Of a DNA stretch of 36,144 nucleotides, positions 4,779 through 27,355 are shown piece by piece (position 1 is the first letter of the stretch; each line of letters begins with the position of its first letter). Below the pieces are notes generated by a model. The model was given only the letters and a program-made list of their open reading frames with translations, was not told where the DNA came from and did no database searches. Both the position numbers and the translations under genes were made by a program. This DNA is from a virus (lineage: Duplodnaviria > Heunggongvirae > Uroviricota > Caudoviricetes): IMG/VR virus record IMGVR_UViG_3300019935_000001, positions 1-36,144 of that record, one strand, 5' to 3'.

Positions 4779-5684
4779 ATGCCACTTTTGCGTACTGTCG
4801 CAGAGAACCTGTCTAACAACGACCTGGTTGCAGGTGTAGTTGAAGAAGTAATCGACCGCGACTCGCTGTTCGCCCTGCTGCCGTTTACTAAAACGACTGG
4901 CAAGGCTTACGTGTACAACCGTGAAGGCACCCTGTCTGAAGGCCAGTTCATTGATGTGAACGCGACCGTTCCAGAAGGCGCGAGCACAGTTGTTGAAGTA
5001 ACCACTAAGCTGCGCGTCCTGGCCGGTGATGTGGACGTTGACAAGTTCCTGTCTGAAACCATGGATGACACCAATGCACAGAAGGCGATCCAGATCGCAA
5101 TGAAGGCAAAAGGTCTGGGCCGTGCATTCCGCCGTGCTCTGATCAATGGTGATTCTACGTCCAACGCCCTGGAGTTCGACGGCATCGACAAGCTGGTAAA
5201 AGACACCAGTAACGAGCTGGTTGTGGGTGCTAACGGTGCTGCCCTGTCTCTGTCCCACCTGGACGAGCTGCGCGACATGGTTCCAAACACACCAGATGCG
5301 TACATGATGCGCTCCGGTACTTTCCGTGCCCTGAAACAGCTGCTGCGTGCCGCTGGCGGTAACACTGCAGAAATGCTGCAGCTGGAGAACTTCGGTAAGC
5401 CAGTTCCAGCGTTCGACGGCGTGCCAATCATCATCAACGACTTCATCCCAGGTGACGTTGATCAGGGTTCCGCAACCGACACCTGCTCTATCTACGCCCT
5501 GCGCCTGAACGAAGTTGACGGCCTGCACGGCCTGTACGGTGGTGACACTGCAGGTATCCGTGTTGAAGACCTGGGCACAGTTCAGGACAAAGATGCTACT
5601 CGTACTCGCCTGAAGTGGTACGTGGGTCTGGCTCTGAAGAGTACTCAGTCCCTGGCTGCTCTGCGCGGTGTAACTAACGTGTGA
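4779..5684 (+). CDS. Major capsid protein (HK97 fold; SSU5-like)
   Basis: 301 aa, AGGAG SD, strongly biased high-expression codons, followed by a terminator. Motifs LSNNDL.GV.E..IDRD.LFA.LPF, LAGDVDVDKF, FDG.PII.NDFIP and KDA.RTR.KWY recalled from SSU5-type capsid proteins. Confidence 0.92.
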   Translation: MPLLRTVAENLSNNDLVAGVVEEVIDRDSLFALLPFTKTTGKAYVYNREGTLSEGQFIDVNATVPEGASTVVEVTTKLRVLAGDVDVDKFLSETMDDTNAQKAIQIAMKAKGLGRAFRRALINGDSTSNALEFDGIDKLVKDTSNELVVGANGAALSLSHLDELRDMVPNTPDAYMMRSGTFRALKQLLRAAGGNTAEMLQLENFGKPVPAFDGVPIIINDFIPGDVDQGSATDTCSIYALRLNEVDGLHGLYGGDTAGIRVEDLGTVQDKDATRTRLKWYVGLALKSTQSLAALRGVTNV

Positions 5685-5689
5685 TAAAG

Positions 5690-5707
5690 TAAGTAAGAGC
5701 TTACTTT
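5690..5707. promoter_or_regulatory. Palindromic operator-like site TAAGTAAG-AG-CTTACTTT
   Basis: 1 mismatch; between capsid stop and terminator. Confidence 0.75.
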
Positions 5708-5709
5708 TT

Positions 5710-5734
5710 AACGGGGGCTAATGCCCCCGTTTTT
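5710..5734 (+). terminator. Rho-independent terminator after major capsid gene
   Basis: AACGGGGGC-TAAT-GCCCCCGTT followed by a T run. Confidence 0.85.
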
Positions 5735-5750
5735 GTATCTGGAGAAAGAA

Positions 5751-6191
5751 ATGCCACACGTAATTCTGAAAGGTAAAGGCTGGGAAGGCTTCAACGGCCT
5801 ATTTGGCCAGTATGAGTTCAAGGATGGTCGATCTGTTGAGGATCTGCCCACCCTGGAGGCGTCCCGGCTGGCGGCCATTGCCCCAATCGAAACAGAAGAG
5901 GGTCACAACCCTTCCCCATCCCAGCAGCTGATCGATATGCGCGATGTTCGGGCGTCTGACAAGCGAACTACAACCCGGCTTGTACGCGATGCGGAATCAG
6001 AGAAAGCCGCTCAGAAAGCAAATGAGTGCGATTCTGCAGTGCCGACTATCACTCGCGAACAGCTCGAAGCAATCGCAGATAAGCGAGGTATTAACGGCCT
6101 GCGTGAGGTGGCCTCCGAGTACGGTGTGACCTCGAAGTCTATTCAGGGCCTGATCGATGGCATCCTGGCAGTAGCCGAGAGCAAAGCCTGA
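5751..6191 (+). CDS. Putative head-associated protein with C-terminal Rho-N/HeH-like helical domain
   Basis: GGAG SD at 5741-5744 supports ATG 5751 rather than 5721. C-terminal TREQLEAIAD..GINGLREVA..YGV resembles small helical domains often found just after capsid genes. Confidence 0.55.
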   Translation: MPHVILKGKGWEGFNGLFGQYEFKDGRSVEDLPTLEASRLAAIAPIETEEGHNPSPSQQLIDMRDVRASDKRTTTRLVRDAESEKAAQKANECDSAVPTITREQLEAIADKRGINGLREVASEYGVTSKSIQGLIDGILAVAESKA

Positions 6192-9503: not shown

Positions 9504-12500
9504 ATGAGCTTAGGCGATATTGAAATCAGGCTGAACCTGGACGCCCGGGACATGGAAACGAACGTGTTCCGGGCGGGGATGCTGATTAAGCATCTTGAAA
9601 AATCAGTCGTGAAGGCGGATCGGTCGATCCAGAGACACCAGAGCAGTCTGTACCGCTGGGGGCGCAATCTTCGTGATGTGTCTCTGACGTTGGGTGCCCT
9701 ACCCTTCGCATTGCAGACCCTCAACACCGCATTCAGTGCGACCATTGGCTATGTCATCCAAGCCAACGCTAAAATGGATCGTCTGAATACCCTGATGCTT
9801 GGCATGTCGGTTTCCACAACCGGTATGGCTGACGCACAGAGACAGGCCAACGAACAGATGGAGTACCTGTTCGATCTGGCTCAGCGTACCCCTTACAACA
9901 TCGACGCTCTGACCAACTCCATGGTTAAACTCAAATCCGTTGGCCTTGACCCAATGGATGGTCAAATGGAGGCACTGATTGACTCGGTGGCCCGGTTCGG
10001 CGGTACGTCCCAGCACCTGCAGCGCTCGTCTATTGCCATTCAGCAGATGATTGGTAAGACGGTCGTGTCGATGGAGGAGCTTCGCCAGCAGCTCGGCGAA
10101 GCAGTCCCAGACGCGATGATCATGATGGCCAAGGGCATGAAAATGACCGTTGGCGACCTGACAGCAATCGTCTCTCAGGGTGTTGTGGAAGCAAAGAACG
10201 CTATCGAGGCAATGACCAGTCAGATGTCGATCCAGAACCGAGGCGCTGCGCAAGCGATGTCGGAAACCTGGGATGGCATCATGGGTCGCATCTCGACTCA
10301 GTGGTTCCTGCTGATGCAGGAATTGGGTAACAAGGGTGGCTTCAAGCAGTTGCGGGAGGTTATGAGCGACTTGCTCAATGAGATGTCTGCACCAGGGGCG
10401 GTGCAGGCGTTCTCTGACATGGGTCGCGGCCTCAATGACCTGATGACCATTCTGAGAACAGCTGGCGGCTTTGTCGTCCGCTTTGCAGATGAAATCCAGA
10501 TGGTTATCGCTGCAGCTGTGGCTTGGAAGGTAGCCAACTCGATCCTGAACTCATCGATCACGAAAGGCATCACCGCCAGCGTTGGTGCTGCACATGGTCG
10601 ATTGGTCGAGTACAACGCCGAGCAAGCCAAGGGTCGCGCCGAGCTGGCCAAGCTGGATACCCATATTGCCCGATTCAATGCCTCCCACGGCCACATGGCT
10701 CAGGCGCAGGCCGGGTCTGCAGTTCAAGCGGCGCTGATGAACAAACGGATGGAGCTGCAGCAGCAGATCTCTGGCCGAGCAACATCCTCTGTTTCCTCAT
10801 ACGCAACTTCTGTGTCCAAATCCGCGGTAGCAATGGTCACCGCTCTGGGGCCGATGGCAGCCATGAGCGCAGCGCTATGGGCCATTGGGGCGGCAATTTC
10901 TCATGTGGTGAGTCAGCAGCAGGTTCATAACGAGCTTGTGCGAGAAGGGGTTCAGGCATACGACGCCAGTCGTCTGCAGGATTATCGCGACCACTTGAAG
11001 GGTCTTCAAAAGGATCTGGCCGAGGTAGAGAAGCGAGTACGCTCCGATGGCGGTTCAGCTGGCCCGGGCATGTCCTGGTATAGCAAAAGCCAGCTGGAAG
11101 CGGACAAGCAGCGCATCAATGCCCTGAAGATCGAGATTGCGGACGCAACCCGGAATATTGAGGCGTCCTCTGTATCGATCAATAGTCGCATTGGCGACCA
11201 GCTGTTCCAGCGTACTCAGGTTGTAACCCAGCGCTCCCAGCGCGACCTGGTAAAAGCGTTCTCTGCTACTTTCGACGAGATCTACACCCGCTTCTCTGAT
11301 GGTGCACTCTCGAAGGAAGCCTATGAGTTGCAGTTCAACGGGATTCTCGAATCGTACAAAACAGCCCTGGCCATGCCGTATGTCAAAGAGACTGACCGCA
11401 TGGCAGAAGAGCTGGAGAAGCTGATCGAGAAACAGAAGACCGGCATGGCGTCTGAGGGCGAGATTGCCCGGATGAACCAGCTGACCGTTGCAACCGAGAA
11501 GATGCGGGGCGAGATCGAAAAAATCCTGAAGCTGCAGGGGCCGAAGGATCTGGTACTGGTCACCTCTGACAAAAAGAAGAAGACCGATCTTGAGAGATAC
11601 CTGGATCGCGTCTCTGACAAACTGCAGAAGGTGCAGGCCAAGTCTGTCGATGCGAACCAGGAGCTGGCGCAGTTCGAGAATCGTCTGGCCCGTGGTGACT
11701 TTGAGCAGGTCGATAAGGGAATGGTTGACCGCATTCGGACGATGCTGCAGCAGATCCACGAAATCAACCAGGCCAACCAGCTGCGGAAGAAGGATCTCAA
11801 AGATCTGGAGTCCATGACAAAACAGCTGGCGAACCAGCAGGCCCGGATCGCAACCACTACTCGCCAGATAGCCGAGGGCGAAAACCCGTGGCTGAAGATG
11901 TCCACTGGCACCCGTCAGCTGAATAAAACCATTGAGTCTGTGAACGAGAAGATCGCTCTGTTGCGATCCTCTGGCAGTGATGTCACCGCGGAGGTTGAAA
12001 AGCTTCAGCAGACCATGGCCGATCTCCAGGTGCAGCAGGCACAGATGGACGTGTCAGCGAACATCACGAAAATGGTTTCGGCCACCAAGTCTCTGAACCG
12101 CGAACTGATGACCGAAAGGCAGCAGATCGAAGCCAACCATGAAGAGACGGTTGTTTGGCTGGACGCCTGGCAGGAGAAGCTGGCGCTGACCGGCCAACTG
12201 ACCGATGACCAGATCCAGAAGCTGGCCGAGTACCGGGGCGCGCTGAATCGTGATTTTGTCCGCAAGACCGAATCAGCAACAGGTTCCCTGTTGCGCGAGT
12301 GGTCTAACAAGTCTCAAGCAATGGACCGCGTCTGGGCTCGCTCCATGCAAAACATGAGTGGCACCCTGACCGACTTCCTGGTTAAGGGCAAAGGCGACTT
12401 CGGTTCGTTCCTGGAGGATCTGGCATACATGATCGTTCAGGCGCAGCTGAATAGCCTGATGGCTCAGGCATTCGGCGGTGGCAACATGCTGACCCAGCTG

Positions 12501-12926
12501 GGTAGCTCCATTGCTGGCCTGTTCTCTGCTGGCCCAGCCACAGCTGCAGCAGGCACATCCGTAACCGGTACATCCCCAACGGCCTCGTTTGCCACCGGCG
12601 GGATCATGACCGAGCACGGCAAAGCCACTCTGCGTCAGTACGCCAACGGCGGCATCGCCCACTCCCCTCAAATTGCACTGTACGGTGAAGGCTCCAGACC
12701 GGAAGCCTACGTGCCACTGCCTGATGGCCGGACTATCCCCGTGACCATGAAAGGCGGTGGCGGCGGCGATGTGCAGGTGAACATCATCAATCAGTCCGGC
12801 CAGCAGGTATCTCAGGGTGAAACCGAGAAGCGAATGGACGGCGAAAAAATGATCCTGGATGTCGTCCTGAAGGCGGCCACTCGCCCCGGCGCATTCCGGA
12901 CAGGTATGAAAGGAGCTATGTCGTGA
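9504..12926 (+). CDS. Tail tape measure protein
   Basis: 1140 aa, Ala-rich helical/coiled-coil; tape-measure domain (AQRTPYNI..L...SGG..Q..EELRQQLGEA.P) and C-terminal FATGG/YANGG...GEG..PEAYVPL. Confidence 0.95.
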   Translation: MSLGDIEIRLNLDARDMETNVFRAGMLIKHLEKSVVKADRSIQRHQSSLYRWGRNLRDVSLTLGALPFALQTLNTAFSATIGYVIQANAKMDRLNTLMLGMSVSTTGMADAQRQANEQMEYLFDLAQRTPYNIDALTNSMVKLKSVGLDPMDGQMEALIDSVARFGGTSQHLQRSSIAIQQMIGKTVVSMEELRQQLGEAVPDAMIMMAKGMKMTVGDLTAIVSQGVVEAKNAIEAMTSQMSIQNRGAAQAMSETWDGIMGRISTQWFLLMQELGNKGGFKQLREVMSDLLNEMSAPGAVQAFSDMGRGLNDLMTILRTAGGFVVRFADEIQMVIAAAVAWKVANSILNSSITKGITASVGAAHGRLVEYNAEQAKGRAELAKLDTHIARFNASHGHMAQAQAGSAVQAALMNKRMELQQQISGRATSSVSSYATSVSKSAVAMVTALGPMAAMSAALWAIGAAISHVVSQQQVHNELVREGVQAYDASRLQDYRDHLKGLQKDLAEVEKRVRSDGGSAGPGMSWYSKSQLEADKQRINALKIEIADATRNIEASSVSINSRIGDQLFQRTQVVTQRSQRDLVKAFSATFDEIYTRFSDGALSKEAYELQFNGILESYKTALAMPYVKETDRMAEELEKLIEKQKTGMASEGEIARMNQLTVATEKMRGEIEKILKLQGPKDLVLVTSDKKKKTDLERYLDRVSDKLQKVQAKSVDANQELAQFENRLARGDFEQVDKGMVDRIRTMLQQIHEINQANQLRKKDLKDLESMTKQLANQQARIATTTRQIAEGENPWLKMSTGTRQLNKTIESVNEKIALLRSSGSDVTAEVEKLQQTMADLQVQQAQMDVSANITKMVSATKSLNRELMTERQQIEANHEETVVWLDAWQEKLALTGQLTDDQIQKLAEYRGALNRDFVRKTESATGSLLREWSNKSQAMDRVWARSMQNMSGTLTDFLVKGKGDFGSFLEDLAYMIVQAQLNSLMAQAFGGGNMLTQLGSSIAGLFSAGPATAAAGTSVTGTSPTASFATGGIMTEHGKATLRQYANGGIAHSPQIALYGEGSRPEAYVPLPDGRTIPVTMKGGGGGDVQVNIINQSGQQVSQGETEKRMDGEKMILDVVLKAATRPGAFRTGMKGAMS

Positions 12927-19988: not shown

Positions 19989-21068
19989 ATGCAACAATAC
20001 ACATCTATCAACGGGGCTACGCTGATCACGCAGGCTCCGGGTAAGCTGATGGCGAACATCGATACCCTGCTGTCGAGCAATGAAGGTACGGTGTTCCCTA
20101 GCTCCAACAATGTGATGGGCCGGGTCTGCTACCGCAGCGACCAGAAGAAGCTGTATCTGATGACGGATGATAGTCCTGCCACCTGGAAGCTGATCTCTGA
20201 CTTGTCCAAAACCTACGTGACGTATGAAGACTGCAACACGGACTTCATCAACAAAAGCAAGGTTACCAGTTCACTGACCGACACCAGTACATCGAAGGTG
20301 GCATCAGCCAAGGCTGTGAAGACTGTCCAGGACAATCTGAACAGCCACACCACAGCATATGCCGACTTCGTTGGCCAGATCTCCAAGTCATCGGCTTCGT
20401 ACATCTTCTCCAACAACATCTCGCTGGTTCGGGATGCCGCCACCCTGACAGTCCAGGGCGGTGCAGTTGGGGCGGACAATGGCGAGCGAACGTCTGCCCT
20501 GCAACTGGGCCGTTCCAACTCCCGAGCCTTTAACGTGGTGACTCACGGCACAGGGTATACATTCTTAGGGTCAGGCGGCCTGACTTCCTCGCGTTTGCCC
20601 ACTCACAACGCCATGCGCTTTGCCTATGGATCGAACTCTGTGCTGTTTTACGGAACGGTGGATGTGAACGGCAGGCTGGATGCGAACTCCGGTCTGAATG
20701 TGAATGGCTCGACCGGCATGGATGGCAACGTGACCGTTGACGGCACCGTGGCGGTAACCGGCCAGATTTCATCGACAGGCAACATTACATCTGGCGGAAC
20801 AATCACGATGGCATCCGATGCCCGACTGAAGAGTGATATTGAAACCATTGAAGGGGCGCTGGACAAGGTAACTGGGATGCGCGGCGTGATGTACACGCTC
20901 AGGTCATCGGGCGAGCGCCGCCCTGGAGTCATTGCCGACGAGCTTGAAAAGGTACTTCCCGAGGCTGTTGATCGCTCTGGCGAATACAAGTCCGTTGCTT
21001 ACCAAAACCTGGCAGGGTTACTGATCCAGGCCATCAAAGAGCTTAATGACAAGGTGGAGGCCCGATAA
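19989..21068 (+). CDS. Tail fibre 1 with C-terminal peptidase S74 intramolecular chaperone
   Basis: SDARLKSDI cleavage motif, GVIADELEKVLPEAV, VAY..L.GLLIQAIKEL. Confidence 0.88.
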   Translation: MQQYTSINGATLITQAPGKLMANIDTLLSSNEGTVFPSSNNVMGRVCYRSDQKKLYLMTDDSPATWKLISDLSKTYVTYEDCNTDFINKSKVTSSLTDTSTSKVASAKAVKTVQDNLNSHTTAYADFVGQISKSSASYIFSNNISLVRDAATLTVQGGAVGADNGERTSALQLGRSNSRAFNVVTHGTGYTFLGSGGLTSSRLPTHNAMRFAYGSNSVLFYGTVDVNGRLDANSGLNVNGSTGMDGNVTVDGTVAVTGQISSTGNITSGGTITMASDARLKSDIETIEGALDKVTGMRGVMYTLRSSGERRPGVIADELEKVLPEAVDRSGEYKSVAYQNLAGLLIQAIKELNDKVEAR

Positions 21069-22996
21069 TGGAGGCGTACCAAAATATTGCAAGTTCTGAC
21101 ACGGTAAAGGATAGCCGTAACGTTATTAACAATAATATTCTTACAGCGATCAGCCAGTCTGCTGCGACTTCGTTTCCAACCACTCATGTGCTGGCGGGCC
21201 GTACCTGCTACAGGACTGACGAGCTGATGCTGTATATCTGCAACGACGCGGACCCTCAGTCGTGGATGCCAATGTTCGACCTGGGCTCAGGTAAGTCGCC
21301 GAATGCGCAGAAGCTGGACGGGTACGACTACACCGCTTTTTTGCGCAAGGGCGACACTGCTGATCAGAATCTGGAATCCGACCGTATCACGTTGGGCGGC
21401 AGCGCTGTGGATGGCATGCGCCGCAGTACCGAAGGGGTCCATATTGAGCAGCACTCTTCCAGCTCGAAGCGGCTGTACATCAATTCCATCGGTAACGTGG
21501 ATCTACAGGCGGACTCGAACGAGAACGGGTCTGGCGGCGTAATCCGGTTCCATGTTGGTGCCAACCAGCTGGCCTATATCGACTCCAGTTACTTCACCTT
21601 TGCAGGCAAGTCGGGCTACGTCAAAGCCCGATTTGGGGCCGCCGGTTCTGACGACACATTCGTGGAGTTTCGGGACAACACTTCCGATACCTGGCGCCAC
21701 TTTGGCTTCGACGCCTCGGCTCAGGACTGGTACGCAGAGATCCCAGGCAATCGCTGGAAGCTGTGGCACCAGGGTAATGATGCTAACCTGGTGAAGAAGG
21801 ACCAGAAGAATGTGATTGTTGTCCCGGACTCCGTAGCCAACCAGACGATATATGCCAACAGTATAGAGATGTACCCTACAGGATCGGATACGCTAACTGC
21901 CGACCACTCTCATATAGGGAATCGAGTATATATCGCCTCAGATGCTTCAGGCGGGGATGCTGTAAACGAGCACCGCCTCTACGGTTCTTACACATATGTG
22001 GTCGCCAATGGGGACTCGGACATTGTTTACGGTACTTACAGCTACGGTCGCAGCAATGTGCCAGCTGGCGAGTCCTGCTCCGACGTTAGAGGAGGCTACA
22101 ACGTCGGTGTCGGAGCTGGCGAGGGCACTGTTAGCAATATTTATGGCTGCGTGAACTACGGCATCTCATCTAACATAGGTCCGGTTGGCAGCCTATATGG
22201 GTCTCACAACCGGGCTCAAGTTACCTCGGTAGCAACCGGATCTGTGACTTCGGCATACGGGGTCTACTCAGAGGTGGAGGTTGATGCGGCAAGCGTCAAC
22301 AACATCTATGGGGTTCGATCCGTCATAGACATTGATGGTGGAGCCACCGACAACGCTTACTTGTTTCACGGTGAATATCAAGGTTCCCTCTCTCCCGATT
22401 CCTACGGGATCTACATCGACTCTAACGTTGAAAACCATCTGGGGGGCAACCTACTGGTAGAGAATGGAATCCAAGTTAATGGCTCCGATTGGAACCGCAA
22501 CTTCCGCATTCGTGGTCCTGCTCCATGTATCTATTTTGATCAGGACGATGACTCAAATGACAAGGCAATGCTGGGCCTAAATGGCGAAGAGTTGTACCTA
22601 CTGGCAGACAAAAATGCAGACGGGGTATTTGATTCCACCTCTCCGTTCCCGATGCAGGTCAATATCAACACCGGTGTGGCTCTGTTCAAAGGATCAGTTG
22701 GTCAGGCATCCGATGAACGCCTGAAGGAAGATATTCAGCGTATTCTGAACCCGGTCGAGAAGATTCGACAGCTGGGTGGTTACACGTATACCCGTATTGA
22801 CACCGGTGAGCGCCAGACAGGTGTACTGGCTCAGGAAGTGAAACAGGTGTTGCCAGAAGCTGTGCGCCAGTTCGCAGATGACGGAATGATGACCGTTGCG
22901 TATGGGGAAATGATTGGCCTGGTTCTGGAAGGCGTTCGGGCACTGGACGAGCGGATCACCGCTTTGGAGGAGATAAATGTCACTCAAGGCCAATAA
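21068..22996 (+). CDS. Tail fibre 2 with C-terminal peptidase S74 intramolecular chaperone
   Basis: SDERLKEDI motif, GVLAQEVKQVLPEAV, VAYGEMIGLVLEG; N-terminus paralogous to fibre 1; internal YG repeats. Confidence 0.88.
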   Translation: MEAYQNIASSDTVKDSRNVINNNILTAISQSAATSFPTTHVLAGRTCYRTDELMLYICNDADPQSWMPMFDLGSGKSPNAQKLDGYDYTAFLRKGDTADQNLESDRITLGGSAVDGMRRSTEGVHIEQHSSSSKRLYINSIGNVDLQADSNENGSGGVIRFHVGANQLAYIDSSYFTFAGKSGYVKARFGAAGSDDTFVEFRDNTSDTWRHFGFDASAQDWYAEIPGNRWKLWHQGNDANLVKKDQKNVIVVPDSVANQTIYANSIEMYPTGSDTLTADHSHIGNRVYIASDASGGDAVNEHRLYGSYTYVVANGDSDIVYGTYSYGRSNVPAGESCSDVRGGYNVGVGAGEGTVSNIYGCVNYGISSNIGPVGSLYGSHNRAQVTSVATGSVTSAYGVYSEVEVDAASVNNIYGVRSVIDIDGGATDNAYLFHGEYQGSLSPDSYGIYIDSNVENHLGGNLLVENGIQVNGSDWNRNFRIRGPAPCIYFDQDDDSNDKAMLGLNGEELYLLADKNADGVFDSTSPFPMQVNINTGVALFKGSVGQASDERLKEDIQRILNPVEKIRQLGGYTYTRIDTGERQTGVLAQEVKQVLPEAVRQFADDGMMTVAYGEMIGLVLEGVRALDERITALEEINVTQGQ

Positions 22997-23240
22997 CACC
23001 GAGGTTATCGGTGCTGATGGAAAGATTCACTGGGGCCGTCTGAAGTCAGTACCCGGTCTCGTGCAGGATGGGCAGATCCGAACCCAGGAGCCACCGTACC
23101 AGTACAACTGTGAGGGCTCCGGTACTTCGATCACCTACCGGACCACCGGTATGGAGTACATGCCCGGTAATAAGTACCGACTTCGCCAGATCAAGGTGAA
23201 GTCCACTTCTAACTGCAACTGTAACTGCGGGAATTTCTAA
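22977..23240 (+). CDS. Small protein ending in Asn-Cys repeat (STSNCNCNCGNF); candidate modification substrate
   Basis: Strong SD GGAGGAG at 22966-22972, overlap with fibre 2 and TAATG coupling to the next gene support a real gene. NCNCNC is encoded at 23211-23228. Confidence 0.8.
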   Translation: MSLKANNTEVIGADGKIHWGRLKSVPGLVQDGQIRTQEPPYQYNCEGSGTSITYRTTGMEYMPGNKYRLRQIKVKSTSNCNCNCGNF

Positions 23241-23971
23241 TGCTTCAGGTCGCGGTAACACCCGTAAAGGGCTATGGGAAAGGCGTCCGGTTATCGACTG
23301 ACGGTAACGGTCTGCTGGTTGAGGCGGTTGACGAAAACGGGGATCTGACCGCCAGTAACTATTTGAGCGAAGCGATTGTGCGTGGCTCGATGGGCCAGAA
23401 GGAGATCTCTGACGCCTCGAATATCTATGTGCGTGTACGGGACGATGGATCGGTTCATAGCATGTACAACAAGTTGGTGAATAGCTTCGATAGCAAGGAC
23501 TCCGGGTTCGTGCACATTGCAAAAATGGGCCATAAGGTGGGCGGGCAGATTCACATCCCCTACGCCGACAGTCCGCTGAGCGAGTGGGGGCTGCGCGTGA
23601 ACTATGATGCCGACGCTGGCGCAATTGCGGGGCCAGGTGTTGAGCTGATTGAGGTTCCACTGGGGGAGGATTCGTTCCATGCGCTTGCAAATCAAAACCT
23701 CCCCACGCTCAGGGTTTCTGATGTGGAAACTCAGGGGGATCACTATCGTGTGACGGTTCAAGTTGTGCGTTCAGGGAACGACGACAAGCGCTCTGGTGTA
23801 GCTATCTACGCGAAGAGTGATTCAGGATACATTGCTCAGAGAAAACTGCTCACAAACGAACTGGGGCGGGCACAGTTTAAGTGTGCCAGGTTACTGCTGG
23901 AGGACTCTGAAGAGTTCGTTGCAGAGTTTGGCTTCAAATTTTTGTCCAACATCACCAGTGTAAGCCTTTAA
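23240..23971 (+). CDS. Hypothetical beta-rich protein with probable C-terminal Ig-like (Big-1-type) domain
   Basis: TAATG-coupled. C-terminal VTVQVV...GVAIYAKSDSGY.....LTNELGRAQF pattern resembles bacterial Ig-like domains. Confidence 0.55.
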   Translation: MLQVAVTPVKGYGKGVRLSTDGNGLLVEAVDENGDLTASNYLSEAIVRGSMGQKEISDASNIYVRVRDDGSVHSMYNKLVNSFDSKDSGFVHIAKMGHKVGGQIHIPYADSPLSEWGLRVNYDADAGAIAGPGVELIEVPLGEDSFHALANQNLPTLRVSDVETQGDHYRVTVQVVRSGNDDKRSGVAIYAKSDSGYIAQRKLLTNELGRAQFKCARLLLEDSEEFVAEFGFKFLSNITSVSL

Positions 23972-23985
23972 TCGCCCTGCTATAG

Positions 23986-24003
23986 TAAGTATCTGCTTAC
24001 TTA
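23986..24003. promoter_or_regulatory. Palindromic operator-like site TAAGTATC-TG-CTTACTTA
   Basis: 2 mismatches; preceded by extended -10-like TGcTATAGT (23978-23986); upstream of hydroxylase and rSAM genes. Confidence 0.7.
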
Positions 24004-24016
24004 GCAAGGTATAGAA

Positions 24017-24814
24017 ATGCTTACTCTATTGGATGCAGCAAAACAGAACCTGGACTGGGGAGGCGCAACCGAAAGGTTGAACCCGGCCAGGTTCGATCCC
24101 AACCTGACAATTCCGAACCTGGATACGCGCGGCCTTTCCGAAGCGGTCACGGCTCTGACTGAATCCCAACCTTGCATTCCATGGCAATCCGCTCGGAACT
24201 CCAGCCTGTACGGCATGGGCCTGACATATGACCCGTCCAGTGGAAAGCCATACCTCGATTGCTTTGGCGATCCTTACTACCTTCGGTACTCCACCGATGA
24301 ATACTTCGATGCTGTAGAGGCTGACGACAAGCAGAGGGTTAGAGGTGGCTATCTGGACTGCCTACGGTACGACACCCTGACTCCAGCGGTATATGCCAAT
24401 CCACGACTGAGGCAGCTGTTCGAGAGCTTCCGGTTGCCTGTAGTGCGCAGCTCGTTGCGAATCATTGACGGCAATGCTGTTAGCCCATCCGCACCTTCGG
24501 GAGGCTACCACTGCGACGAGAGTCCTTTCGATTGCCTCCGGCTAAATATCTGCGTGGACACAAACGACAGTTTTGGCCTGCAGTATGAAGGGCGACCGCC
24601 AATGTTCCTGTCCGCTGGCGACCACCGGATCGTGATGACTCACAAGCGGCACCGGGCGTTCGTCGTTCGCCAGTCTGATTTTCAGCGAATCCATATTGTG
24701 ATCAGCGTGGTGCCATGGCTGAAGAAAACCCAGAGCGGCAACTGGGTACCAAACGAATACTTCGGGGAAATCCACCCCTTCGATATGGTCAAAGAGGGCC
24801 TTCTTCTGAAATGA
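24017..24814 (+). CDS. Fe(II)/2-oxoglutarate dioxygenase, aspartyl/asparaginyl beta-hydroxylase-like
   Basis: H165-x-D167 (YHCDE), R.NI.V.TN, distal H212 (HRA) and R224 in RIHIV match the Asp_Arg_Hydrox-type facial triad and 2OG-binding Arg. Confidence 0.78.
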   Translation: MLTLLDAAKQNLDWGGATERLNPARFDPNLTIPNLDTRGLSEAVTALTESQPCIPWQSARNSSLYGMGLTYDPSSGKPYLDCFGDPYYLRYSTDEYFDAVEADDKQRVRGGYLDCLRYDTLTPAVYANPRLRQLFESFRLPVVRSSLRIIDGNAVSPSAPSGGYHCDESPFDCLRLNICVDTNDSFGLQYEGRPPMFLSAGDHRIVMTHKRHRAFVVRQSDFQRIHIVISVVPWLKKTQSGNWVPNEYFGEIHPFDMVKEGLLLK

Positions 24815-26091
24815 AATACCAACTCAAGATGGAGGCCCCTGATGGCCGCCATGAATATCTCGACTTCGATTCAAAGCTGGGTACGCTGACACGCAATGGT
24901 GTGCCGTTCGATACCTCAGATCTGCGCCAGTCCAGCCCCAACCCAGAGCAGATTCACAAGGTAAGTCCGGATAGCCCAGGCCGAAAGGTGAGCGCACCGA
25001 AGGTTTTGAAAATCCAGCTGGGGCTGAAGTGCAATTACTCTTGCTCCTACTGCAACCAGGCCTCAGAGGTACCCGGTGCCGTGGTTACCAACAAGCGTGA
25101 TGCCGTTGAGTTTCTGGCAAACCTGGACAGCTGGCTGCAGGAGCCTCCGGAGAGAATTGAGCTGTGGGGTGGCGAACCGCTGGTGTACCTGTCGAAGCTG
25201 AAGGTTCTGGTGCCAGAGATCCGCGATCGATTCCCGGATGCCCAGATCGGCATGATTACGAATGGCAGCCTGCTGAAAGATGAGACGGTTGACTTCATTA
25301 TCGATCACCAGATCAACGTCGGTATGTCACATGACGCATATGGCCAGGCACAGCGCGGAGATGATCCCCTGCAGGATGATCGGGTGCTGGCAGCAGTGCA
25401 CCGCCTGGTTGCAGAGCATGGCGATCGCTTCTCTATCAATTCGGTGATCACCGGTTCGAGCCTGGATATGGCCTCAACCATTCGGTACTTCCAGGCCATT
25501 TTCGGGCCAGGCGTTCAGGTGCTGTTTGAAGACGTTGTGAACTACCACGACGATGGCGCCATTGATTCTAACCAGATGACGAGCCAGCAGCTGGCCGAGC
25601 TGTCTGACAATGTGTTCTATGGTGTGGCCGGTGACAATCTGCTGGAGAGCCCAGGCGTCCAGTCAAAGATCGTTCGCTTCCTGGCTGGCCTGAATAGTGG
25701 CTTCTCCATGGATCAGGCGTATTCCAAATGCGGAATGGATCGGCCAGACCATATTGCGTGCGACCTGGCCGGCAACATCGTCACTTGTCAGAACGTGGGC
25801 GCCAGCGGCAGACATCTGGTTGGCAGCGTATACAAGATGGAGGGTGCCCGACTGACCAGCTCCCTGCACTTCTCACATCGAAAGAACTGCCAGGACTGCC
25901 CGGTGCTTCGCCTTTGTGGCGGCGGCTGCATGTACCTTCACGGCGATCACTTCCAGGCCAGCTGCAAGGCTCTTTACCAGTACAACATGGGTTATCTGCG
26001 AGCAGCACTGTACCTGTTGACAGGTCTGGCCCTGGTTGAAGTGACCCAGATCGGTCAGCCATCATTAATTCCTTGCATTTCTTCCGAATAA
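24811..26091 (+). CDS. Radical SAM / SPASM-domain protein
   Basis: ATGA overlap gives start 24811 (426 aa). CNYSCSYC (CxxxCxxC at 25030-25053), WGGEPL, ITNGSLL, and C-terminal SPASM cysteines (KCG...ACD..GNIVTCQ...CQDCPVLRLCGGGC...C). Confidence 0.93.
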   Translation: MKYQLKMEAPDGRHEYLDFDSKLGTLTRNGVPFDTSDLRQSSPNPEQIHKVSPDSPGRKVSAPKVLKIQLGLKCNYSCSYCNQASEVPGAVVTNKRDAVEFLANLDSWLQEPPERIELWGGEPLVYLSKLKVLVPEIRDRFPDAQIGMITNGSLLKDETVDFIIDHQINVGMSHDAYGQAQRGDDPLQDDRVLAAVHRLVAEHGDRFSINSVITGSSLDMASTIRYFQAIFGPGVQVLFEDVVNYHDDGAIDSNQMTSQQLAELSDNVFYGVAGDNLLESPGVQSKIVRFLAGLNSGFSMDQAYSKCGMDRPDHIACDLAGNIVTCQNVGASGRHLVGSVYKMEGARLTSSLHFSHRKNCQDCPVLRLCGGGCMYLHGDHFQASCKALYQYNMGYLRAALYLLTGLALVEVTQIGQPSLIPCISSE

Positions 26092-26109
26092 TAAGTAAGG
26101 ACTGACTTT
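26092..26109. promoter_or_regulatory. Palindromic operator-like site TAAGTAAG-GA-CTGACTTT
   Basis: 1 mismatch; immediately after the rSAM stop, upstream of the lysis genes. Confidence 0.75.
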
Positions 26110-26150: not shown

Positions 26151-26480
26151 ATGGAGCTGAAAATGTCGGAAGAACAACTTGCCGCTCAGACCACCCTGCA
26201 GTGGACAAACGGGACATTTTGGAGTGTCGCGTTGATGTTCATTGCAGGCACTATCGGGCGTTCTCTGGTTAGCTCCGAACCGTTCTGCGCAAAGAAATTC
26301 TTTGGCGAACTGATCCTGTCCGGCTTGGCAGCGGTCGTACTGTACTCATTCAATGTCATGCAGGGCATGTCTCCAATCCAGATCGTCTTCTTTGGCGCCC
26401 TGGGTGGAATGGGTGGTATCCGCGTTGTCGAGTGGGTCATCAAATTTGCCAAAAAGTGCAGAGCCTCTGGAGTGCTGTAA
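26151..26480 (+). CDS. Holin (LydA/lambda-like, multi-TM); the start may be ATG 26163
   Basis: Three hydrophobic segments, basic C-terminus (KFAKK), directly upstream of endolysin; GGAG at 26153-26156 positions the second ATG. Confidence 0.75.
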   Translation: MELKMSEEQLAAQTTLQWTNGTFWSVALMFIAGTIGRSLVSSEPFCAKKFFGELILSGLAAVVLYSFNVMQGMSPIQIVFFGALGGMGGIRVVEWVIKFAKKCRASGVL

Positions 26481-26903
26481 ATGGAAAACCACTACTCACG
26501 TATTTCTCGCCAGCGCCTGGACACCTGTCATCCTGAACTGCAGCTGCTGTTCGAGACTGTCCTGGAGTTTTTCGACCACTCGATCTACTCCGGGGCTCGT
26601 TCTCGGGAAGATCAGGAAACTCTGTTTCAGGAGGGCTCGTCCAAGCTGCGCTGGCCCGAGTCAAAACACAATAGCGTACCTTCCATGGCGGTAGACGCCG
26701 GGCCGTGGATCGAAGGTGTAGATCGGTGGGATGAACCCCAGTGTCGCCTGTTCGCAGGCTTCGTAATGGGTGTGGCAGCAATGCTCAAGGAATCCGGTTC
26801 CATGACCTACTCCGTGCGCTGGGGTGGCGACTGGGATCAGGACTGGAACATTCACGACCAGACATTTAATGACCTGGTTCACTTTGAACTTGTGGAGGAC
26901 TGA
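26481..26903 (+). CDS. Endolysin, peptidase M15 (L-Ala-D-Glu endopeptidase-like)
   Basis: S...L..CHP.LQ, G.RS...Q..L, SKH......AVD, WGGDW, D..HFEL zinc-peptidase motifs; no signal peptide. Confidence 0.92.
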   Translation: MENHYSRISRQRLDTCHPELQLLFETVLEFFDHSIYSGARSREDQETLFQEGSSKLRWPESKHNSVPSMAVDAGPWIEGVDRWDEPQCRLFAGFVMGVAAMLKESGSMTYSVRWGGDWDQDWNIHDQTFNDLVHFELVED

Positions 26904-27355
26904 TGAACCCACTATTGATCTCGCTCGGCAGTACCCTGATCGACCGCATCTTGCCAGATGAAGCAGCGAAGGCCACCGCAAAGGCTGAGCTGATGCGGGC
27001 CGAGCAGGATGGTGACCTTCGTGAACTGGAGACGCGACTGCAGGTGATGCTGGCAGAAGCAAAGTCTGCAGATCCGTGGACATCCCGAGCCCGACCAACC
27101 TTTATGTACGTGTTCTACCTGATCCTGCTGGCGAACTGTTTCGTCATCCCAATTCTGGGACTGATGGTGGAGCCAGAGATATTGGTCGCCTACTACGCGA
27201 ACCTGGCCACTGGGCTTCAGGCCCTGCCGACCGAGCTATGGGTACTGTTCGGCACAGCCTTCACCGGCTATACCGTGTCCCGGTCGTATGATAAGAAGCA
27301 GGTGCTGCAGGGAGGGGCATCGACTGTTGAAAAGGTATTAGGGCGACTCCGGTAA
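26903..27355 (+). CDS. 3-TM holin family protein (GTA_holin_3TM-like)
   Basis: LID.ILPD...K..AK, D.WTSRARP.F.Y, LP..LW.LFG....GY...RS.DK signature. Confidence 0.85.
   Translation: MNPLLISLGSTLIDRILPDEAAKATAKAELMRAEQDGDLRELETRLQVMLAEAKSADPWTSRARPTFMYVFYLILLANCFVIPILGLMVEPEILVAYYANLATGLQALPTELWVLFGTAFTGYTVSRSYDKKQVLQGGASTVEKVLGRLR

Follow-up and report, generated by a model that had tools for sequence, protein, structure and literature searches.

The window analysed here is a 36,144-nt stretch of phage DNA, the left 36 kb of the complete 102.7-kb virus record IMGVR_UViG_3300019935_000001, which carries direct terminal repeats. Between its last tail fibre and its lysis genes lie four consecutive + strand open reading frames (ORFs), all of which were present on the ORF map as the initial annotation had proposed. 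They encode an 87-amino-acid (aa) protein with an Asn-Cys (NC) repeat close to its C-terminus, a 243-aa protein with an immunoglobulin (Ig)-like domain, a 265-aa Fe(II)/2-oxoglutarate (2OG) oxygenase, and a 426-aa radical S-adenosylmethionine (SAM)/SPASM enzyme. On balance, these genes appear to form a four-part maturation cassette for the phage fibre tip, with the Asn-Cys tail of the 87-aa protein very probably its substrate. The wider proposition, that phages of roughly a thousand lineages covalently cross-link and hydroxylate their fibre tips with a radical SAM enzyme dedicated to the task, in most cases joined by an Fe/2OG oxygenase, and may thereby lock three chains together, is evenly poised. 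The components of the cassette are as follows.

22977-23240, + strand: 87-aa mini-fibre or fibre-tip protein, the presumed substrate (ORF, Shine-Dalgarno site and start read directly)
23211-23228, + strand: Asn-Cys repeat N79 C80 N81 C82 N83 C84, inside the 87-aa gene (read directly)
23229-23237, + strand: GNF tail after the repeat, inside the 87-aa gene (read directly)
23240-23971, + strand: 243-aa partner protein with a C-terminal Big_1-type Ig-like domain (ORF, structure model)
24017-24814, + strand: 265-aa Fe(II)/2OG oxygenase of the AspH/Cpz10/proline-hydroxylase fold (structure model, catalytic residues)
24811-26091, + strand: 426-aa radical SAM/SPASM enzyme (PF04055, TIGR04085, phrog_1802)

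Linkage of the radical SAM enzyme to Asn-Cys tails

Loci carrying a homologous radical SAM enzyme (designated by L-numbers) were scored for a tail motif, defined as at least three [NDAQ]C units within 12 residues of the stop codon of a same-strand ORF no more than 4 kb upstream of the enzyme. The wider sweep yielded 80 viral and 80 bacterial-genome loci, the latter being prophages, mostly in alpha- and beta-proteobacteria. Among the 114 loci with at least 3.5 kb of upstream sequence, 88 had the motif upstream on the same strand, and 96 had it anywhere on the enzyme strand. Across 163 loci the motif occurred in 120 same-strand ORFs, as against 0 of 4854 opposite-strand ORFs. Its frequency is far above chance.

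The reverse search used a DNA pattern for NCNCNCNC in viral contigs, some of which were also in the forward set. The enzyme was encoded downstream on the same strand for 31 of 32 ORFs with NCNCNCNC at the C-terminus (at least 4.5 kb of downstream sequence), and for 1 of 19 ORFs in which the motif was internal. The linkage of homologous radical SAM enzymes to NC-repeat genes, on which the initial annotation had staked its reading, thus holds in both directions (88/114 forward, 31/32 reverse). An NC protein was found in 75 of the 87 loci with full context, and all four parts (NC protein, 243-aa family, an oxygenase, and the enzyme) were found together in 53; co-occurrence of NC-repeat C-termini and 2OG oxygenases across phages was a check that the initial annotation had named.

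By tblastn, the enzyme was located in two cultured, unrelated phages, both times within the tail-fibre module. Ralstonia phage RSP15 has the four genes in the window's order, and its 290-aa 'side tail fiber' ends in ...NTNCQCGN. In Achromobacter phage JWF, fibre gp028 has the sequence NCNCDCNCNCS, followed directly by a Hint domain.

Several cassette contigs were binned in taxonomically odd metagenome-assembled genomes (MAGs): L100, L132 (Akkermansia MAG), L160 (Collinsella MAG), L150 (Saccharimonadales MAG) and L143 (cyanobacterial MAG). These may be mis-binned phage, or the host range of the system may extend beyond Pseudomonadota.

The radical SAM/SPASM enzyme

The window enzyme is a member of the radical SAM superfamily, scoring 33.9 against PF04055 (cut-off 29.5), with a CX3CX2C motif (C74, C78 and C81) that is invariant in 58 family representatives. 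It is also a SPASM protein. TIGR04085 gave 30.3 (cut-off 27), and the seven-Cys motif of two auxiliary clusters, taken as C-x9-15-G-x4-C, gap, C-x2-C-x5-C-x3-C, gap, C, was found at C307, C326, C360, C363, C369, C373 and C385, plus G321, all invariant or nearly so in the 58 representatives. Translation of the enzyme was assigned to start at 24811, not 24715, on the basis of the N-termini of 57 homologues, and its length of 426 aa is counted from the ATG of the ATGA that overlaps the oxygenase stop codon. Direct reading of this junction upheld the proposed coupling of the two genes.

The enzyme matched phrog_1802 at 5e-50. Its best named NCBIfam relatives are peptide and protein maturases (nif11, PapB, YhhB, SCIFF and QhpD), and its best solved relative by sequence is CteB (5wgg, 3.6e-8). 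It groups, as had been expected, with peptide- and protein-maturing SPASM enzymes (PapB, nif11, SCIFF/CteB, QhpD), and not with DNA-modification or cofactor families. Scores fell outside each named family tested: 62.8 bits against a cut-off of 340 for PapB (NF047865, residues 66-375), 50.7 against 425 for SCIFF (TIGR03974), 47.8 against 453 for QhpD (TIGR03906), and 35.8 against 349.45 for anaerobic sulfatase-maturating enzyme, anSME (TIGR03942). Scores so far below every family cut-off place the enzyme in a separate family, phrog_1802.

Formation of Cys thioethers by this enzyme is given somewhat better than an even chance. It is unlikely that the enzyme acts on the Asn-Cys tail by other chemistry, such as anSME-like generation of formylglycine or dehydroalanine, epimerisation, or C-C or C-O cross-linking, with the oxygenase then processing the product. 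In favour of such chemistry, the JWF homologue is named 'anaerobic sulfatase-maturating enzyme' in GenBank KP202971.1 (in RefSeq, 'radical SAM domain-containing protein'), TIGR03942 matches full length (residues 69-375), if weakly, and the enzyme, like anSME, takes a folded protein and has no obvious recognition element for peptides that are ribosomally synthesised and then modified post-translationally (RiPPs). The scores to all named families are also similarly low, so that the reaction type is not readable from sequence. However, the anSME substrate motif C/S-x-P/A-x-R was absent from all tails examined, and thioether formers make up both the best-scoring families and the best solved relative. 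In the tails, Cys alternates strictly with N, D, A or Q, which also fits donor-acceptor pairs as in NxxcB (PMC9389541).

At some loci a further radical SAM enzyme (340 or 573 aa), different from the main one, is encoded just upstream of it (L099:4797-5816, L110:4965-5984, L157:4155-5873). No oxygenase was detected at L099 or L110, and the fibre tails there end in GDN and GDG.

The 87-aa protein and its Asn-Cys tail

The 87-aa protein had been described as ending in NCNCNC. The repeat is present, but the true end of the protein is SNCNCNCGNF, three residues beyond it. The protein has a fibre-like N-terminus, then a region of NCEGSG and a beta-hairpin, and finally the SNCNCNCGNF terminus, and a fourth NC is found at residues 44-45. 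Over its first 34 aa it shares 47% identity with a small NC protein from a Rhodoplanes prophage, and alignment with 20 other small NC-tailed proteins showed three invariant Cys. Look-alikes in the ESM Atlas all scored below 0.9 and are treated as leads. The possibility that the ORF is a frameshifted continuation of the fibre gene was rejected, since the fibre ends in a complete, self-cleaving S74 domain and the ORF has its own Shine-Dalgarno site. This site, GGAGGAG, precedes the ATG at 22977 and sits within the 3′ end of the 642-aa fibre gene.

Across loci, the tails comprise 3 to 12 X-C units, in which X is N (63%), A (15%), D (13%) or Q (3%), and some end in additional Cys-rich pieces, e.g. 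CGCC or CC. The repeat is often preceded by a conserved NC-(Y/E)-GSG segment and a stretch resembling a beta-hairpin, as in the window's protein. The carrier proteins range from 72 to about 620 aa, and 9 of 10 long ones matched PHROG tail-fibre families. Judged by these matches, most loci have the Asn-Cys tail at the C-terminal end of a true tail fibre. Alignment of residues 2-66 of the 642-aa window fibre with the N-terminus of one of these long carriers, the NC-tailed L099 fibre, gave 35% identity (E 8e-10). The window's side fibres have their N-terminal attachment domain in common with NC-tailed fibres of other phages.

Where the repeat was internal, weak but consistent matches to a Hint domain began at the next residue, a Cys, in 9 of 10 such loci. 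These were L030:3772-5220 (JWF gp028), L103, L048, L054, L057, L022, L040, L042 and L004. A self-cleaving Hint domain directly after the repeat would, on cleavage, leave the repeat at the C-terminus, and the arrangement as read from sequence implies autoproteolytic exposure of the repeat, perhaps with a thioester intermediate at its end. The common denominator of the carriers is a free C-terminal Asn-Cys tail.

In four loci, two to four tandem small NC-tailed paralogues (78-120 aa) were found upstream of a single radical SAM enzyme (L068:3512-4421, L080:3567-4419, L036:3894-4970, L091:4571-5341). These look like multi-precursor RiPP clusters or sets of alternative fibre tips.

The initial annotation had left the product as either a virion component or a secreted phage peptide and had called the system RiPP-like. 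Maturation of a virion protein is favoured by our data, while the leader-core RiPP or secreted peptide is not, as the tail mostly ends true fibres. The 87-aa protein is probably built into virions. It is very improbable that it is instead a precursor, produced late in infection, from which a RiPP-like peptide or effector is released. The small size and separate gene of the protein would suit a precursor, the two or three tandem small paralogues at L068, L080, L036 and L091 recall RiPP clusters, and a radical SAM enzyme with an oxygenase is a typical RiPP tailoring set. Yet the ORF map and the Pfam and PHROG searches placed no leader peptidase, exporter or immunity gene in the cassette, so that it does not qualify as a RiPP cluster. 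Most loci, moreover, have this tail domain as the C-terminal part of genuine tail fibres, the small proteins begin with what looks like a fibre attachment segment, and the 87-aa gene overlaps the end of the fibre gene.

The regular spacing of the Cys residues was also considered as a ladder of metal or Fe-S sites along the axis of the fibre-tip trimer, like the His-x-His iron sites of T4 gp37. The enzyme would then contribute only indirectly, for instance by delivering clusters or by making one priming modification. Alternating X-C units in a beta strand would, from known fibre structures, put all Cys on one face, as suits axial trimer sites, and the extra CGCC or CC pieces of some tails could be accommodated in the same way. 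Metal binding, however, would not call for a SPASM enzyme of its own, yet such an enzyme, with its catalytic motifs complete and its gene translationally coupled, is found in more than 100 loci. Thiolate-metal sites exposed outside the cell, on the particles of phages with aerobic hosts, would be prone to oxidation, and the recurrent oxygenase partner points to covalent tailoring. A metal ladder is accordingly regarded as improbable, and covalent modification of the tail is retained as the preferred interpretation.

The oxygenase

The fold proposed for the 265-aa protein was confirmed by its structure model (AlphaFold2 (AF2) predicted local distance difference test (pLDDT) score 90.9), which has a 2OG-oxygenase fold. 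The HxD...H...R motif named in the initial annotation corresponds to H165, D167, H212 and R224, invariant in 15 sequences. The protein therefore has the double-stranded beta-helix, metal triad and basic residue of the Fe(II)/2OG oxygenase superfamily. The closest structure was Cpz10 (7v4m; Z 17.1, root-mean-square deviation (rmsd) 2.3 Å, 164 aligned), followed by human AspH (Z 12.5), L-proline cis-4-hydroxylase (Z 11.9) and proline 3-hydroxylase (Z 11.4). No match to Pfam PF05118 was obtained at E ≤ 0.1, although the nearest structures all belong to the Asp/Asn beta-hydroxylase family, and the family profile gave solely insignificant cupin matches among PDB sequences (E 0.12). The family is small, with 10 homologues among 5.8 billion proteins.

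An AspH-like oxygenase was found in 13 of 163 loci of the first set and in 7 loci of the second. Far more common was a PF13759-like (2OG-FeII_Oxy_5) oxygenase with two invariant His. In 101 of 163 loci its gene lay no more than 3.5 kb from that of the radical SAM enzyme, on the same strand, and often abutted it (−4 to +5 nt). All 135 PF13759-like matches were on the enzyme strand. An oxygenase of either type was adjacent to the enzyme in 63 of the 87 full-context loci. On the enzyme tree, the AspH-like label needs at least three changes, and the window's nearest relatives carry the PF13759-like type. The AspH-like type is a rare occupant of an oxygenase slot that is usually filled by a PF13759-like enzyme. 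The use of one slot by two unrelated oxygenase families argues that the oxygenase step belongs to the pathway.

Examples of the PF13759-like type are L044:7367-8493, L003:3032-3661, and L091:3850-4563 and 5354-5971, sometimes as two tandem copies. Both oxygenase types occur together in six loci.

Both enzymes had been proposed to act on the Asn-Cys repeat. For the radical SAM enzyme the link to the tail is supported, but the oxygenase may instead act on an N/D-containing tail after the last Cys. Such a tail was present in 10 of 13 unique tails with an AspH-like oxygenase and in 27 of 130 others (odds ratio 12.7, p = 7.5e-5, ignoring phylogeny); endings at the AspH-like loci include GNF, GNG, GN, GNN, GD and STDC. 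A stricter rule, that a G[ND] tail goes with an AspH-like oxygenase, held in the first set and partly failed in the second (STDC and SK tails), after which the rule was relaxed to 'contains N or D'. Hydroxylation of the tail by the oxygenase is considered possible, at a little short of an even chance.

The 243-aa partner protein

The 243-aa protein was modelled with high confidence (AF2 pLDDT 94.6). Its description as an Ig-like protein is right for residues 154-243, while the N-terminal part is a phage-specific beta domain that is not Ig-like and for which PDB, BFVD and the ESM Atlas offered no informative structural match. Residues 155-243 aligned to intimin (1f02) with Z 10.5 and rmsd 2.3 Å over 84 residues, with a similar result for invasin, identifying the domain as Big_1-type. 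Of 114 loci, 85 encode a member of this family, as a rule with its gene placed between the NC gene and those of the enzymes. The protein is a near-core partner and not a bystander. A search of 1.84 billion representatives returned 1256 clusters at 50% identity (E ≤ 1e-3), with no Pfam family, and this number gives a rough size for the whole system.

Surroundings of the cassette in the window

The cassette lies towards the end of a siphovirus-type late operon that includes terminase, portal, scaffold, major head protein, tape measure, central fibre J and side fibres. The neighbouring features are as follows.

19989-21068, + strand: side tail fibre, 359 aa, with C-terminal Peptidase_S74 (PF13884)
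21068-22996, + strand: side tail fibre, 642 aa, with C-terminal Peptidase_S74 (PF13884)
23986-24003, no strand: palindrome TAAGTA-N6-TACTTA, intergenic copy between the 243-aa and 265-aa genes
26092-26109, no strand: palindrome TAAGTA-N6-TACTTA, copy after the radical SAM stop codon (pattern match)
26151-27355, + strand: lysis cassette of holin-like protein, endolysin and gene transfer agent (GTA)-type holin with three transmembrane (3-TM) segments, closing the late operon (family searches)

The two side fibres matched PF13884 with E-values of 3e-13 and 2.4e-15, as well as PHROG tail-fibre families. Peptidase_S74 at the fibre C-termini is a self-cleaving chaperone domain. Within the cassette, the stop codon of the 87-aa gene and the start codon of the 243-aa gene overlap as TAATG, and a 45-nt gap separates the 243-aa and 265-aa genes. 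A blastn search of the region against 50,697 phage records gave no match, and the 87-, 243- and 265-aa proteins had no match in Pfam, PHROGs or NCBIfam.

The 18-nt palindrome TAAGTA-N6-TACTTA had 12 matches in the window at up to two mismatches, compared with 0.23 expected. Sites were recorded at 2176, 4735, 5690, 6967, 8789, 18404, 23986, 26092, 28235 and 29055, and the copies placed against the ORF map are intergenic. Those at 23986 and 26092 bracket the oxygenase and radical SAM genes, suggesting that both enzymes may be regulated separately from the 87-aa and 243-aa genes.

A different holin-like gene stands on either side of the endolysin gene, and the second is a GTA-type 3-TM holin by family (PF11351, 2e-22), consistent with an alphaproteobacterial host. 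In the tape measure (9504-12923), the N-terminal third also matched an endolysin PHROG (phrog_1768, 8e-36), and this similarity suggests that the tape measure may include a cell-wall-degrading domain.

Prediction of an enzyme-substrate complex and weight of the evidence

The radical SAM enzyme, with three 4Fe-4S clusters and SAM, was folded together with the 87-aa protein. Scores of 0.32, 0.65 and 0.60 were obtained (median 0.60, best control 0.00), which the tool rates as weak support. The runs had at least 49% of contacts in common, with a pLDDT of 41-45 for the 87-aa partner. When the tool was calibrated, 58 of 80 solved complexes reached the mark, as did 2 of 110 mismatched pairs; a pass at 0.60 or less is wrong more often than not, except for pairs that were already likely.

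Several points weigh against a cassette that staples the fibre tip. The complex prediction supports the pairing of the enzyme and the 87-aa protein weakly, and the predicted fold of the 87-aa partner is itself uncertain. The enzyme falls far short of the cut-off of each named maturase family, and no RiPP recognition element (RRE) was evident in its 73-residue N-terminal extension, for which no structural search was made. SPASM enzymes also make formylglycine, epimers, and C-C and C-O links. With so wide a range of reactions, thioethers are a best guess. Many loci come from related phages, and the counts do not represent independent events. The association of the oxygenase with the tail is loose, given that 27 of 130 tails have N or D with no AspH-like oxygenase nearby. 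Finally, the 87-aa protein is free in this phage, and its place in the virion is deduced from its homologues.

A proposed model for fibre-tip maturation

We propose that the radical SAM/SPASM enzyme would bind the free C-terminal Asn-Cys tail and activate its Cys thiols on an auxiliary Fe-S cluster. Abstraction of hydrogen from the neighbouring Asn (Asp, Ala or Gln elsewhere) would then allow Cys-S-to-carbon thioether bridges to form, within one chain or among the three fibre chains. Such bridges would give a rigid tip, resistant to redox conditions and proteases. The AspH-like oxygenase would add a second, oxygen-dependent change, most likely beta-hydroxylation of Asn or Asp in the repeat or the GNF tail, or alternatively S-oxygenation, for example the oxidation of a thioether. 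The 243-aa Ig-domain protein may present the substrate, aid assembly, or form part of the tip.

Fibre tips decide which bacteria a phage attacks, as well as the survival of the particle outside the cell. If the model is true, tip stapling would be a layer of virion biochemistry that structure predictions and host-range models ignore, and the first RiPP-type post-translational modification that an enzyme installs on a structural protein of a virus. Stapling would also open a new, very large class of protein substrates for radical SAM/SPASM chemistry, whose simple motif could serve as a portable tag. The repeated pairing of an oxygen-sensitive and an oxygen-dependent enzyme on a single substrate is unusual in itself. 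With cultured carriers available in Ralstonia phage RSP15 and Achromobacter phage JWF, the idea is directly testable.

Comparison with known systems

The initial annotation had known of no characterised system of this kind, and we likewise found no description of one in the literature on phage radical SAM/SPASM enzymes, tail fibres, thioethers and RiPPs; a cyanophage paper that surfaced merely lists a radical SAM 'antibiotic synthesis' gene. Virion structures reinforced or capped by other means are familiar, among them the HK97 capsid chainmail, the His-x-His iron sites of T4 gp37, and the gp38 tip adhesin of T2 and S16. In being a small tip protein with a gene of its own, on a fibre processed by a chaperone, gp38 resembles the 87-aa protein. 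The HK97, gp37 and gp38 links are autocatalytic or metal-mediated, and none is known to use a dedicated radical SAM enzyme or oxygenase.

Among radical SAM enzymes, streptococcal NxxcB forms a thioether from Cys-S to the Asn beta-carbon and tolerates Ala, Gln and Asp as acceptors (PMC9389541). These four acceptors are the same residues that alternate with Cys in the phage tails, a likeness by residue use. NxxcA, however, is a short leader-core peptide under quorum-sensing control with N-x-x-C spacing, whereas the phage tails have N-C-N-C at the extreme C-terminus of fibres, in a structural operon. QhpD/QhpC and CrpC/CrpA show that SPASM enzymes can put several Cys thioethers into proteins, with Asp or Glu as acceptors (PMC13692751). 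The QhpD model is among the better matches of the phage enzyme, and QhpD offers a precedent for a protein-scale substrate. QhpD and CrpC rely on an RRE together with an N-terminal region that resembles a leader, neither of which is evident in the phage system, and instead of a virion fibre they modify an enzyme subunit and a Cys-rich protein of the cell. The PapB/freyrasin and CteB/SCIFF systems provide the best sequence relatives and have the three-cluster architecture in common with the phage enzyme, but they act on other substrates in other gene contexts, and the phage system is without a leader peptide.

For the oxygenase, the closest relative by structure, Cpz10, is a 2OG-dependent beta-hydroxylase placed closest to the Asp/Asn beta-hydroxylases that also oxygenates a methionine sulfur (PMC9814697). 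The double-stranded beta-helix, HxD...H triad and Arg of AspH, Cpz10 and L-proline cis-4-hydroxylase are all found in the 265-aa protein. Identity to the AspH family is 10-20%, however, the 265-aa family is tiny and phage-linked, and the substrate of Cpz10 is a small molecule.

SPASM radical SAM enzymes that cross-link Cys-rich peptides and proteins are an already known kind. New, in that we found no paper describing them, are a substrate class of virion fibre tips, the N-C-N-C arrangement at a C-terminus that is free, and the recurring association with an Fe/2OG oxygenase and a Big_1 protein. Peculiar to the window are its oxygenase, which is AspH-like, and its presumed substrate, which takes the form of a free 87-aa protein.

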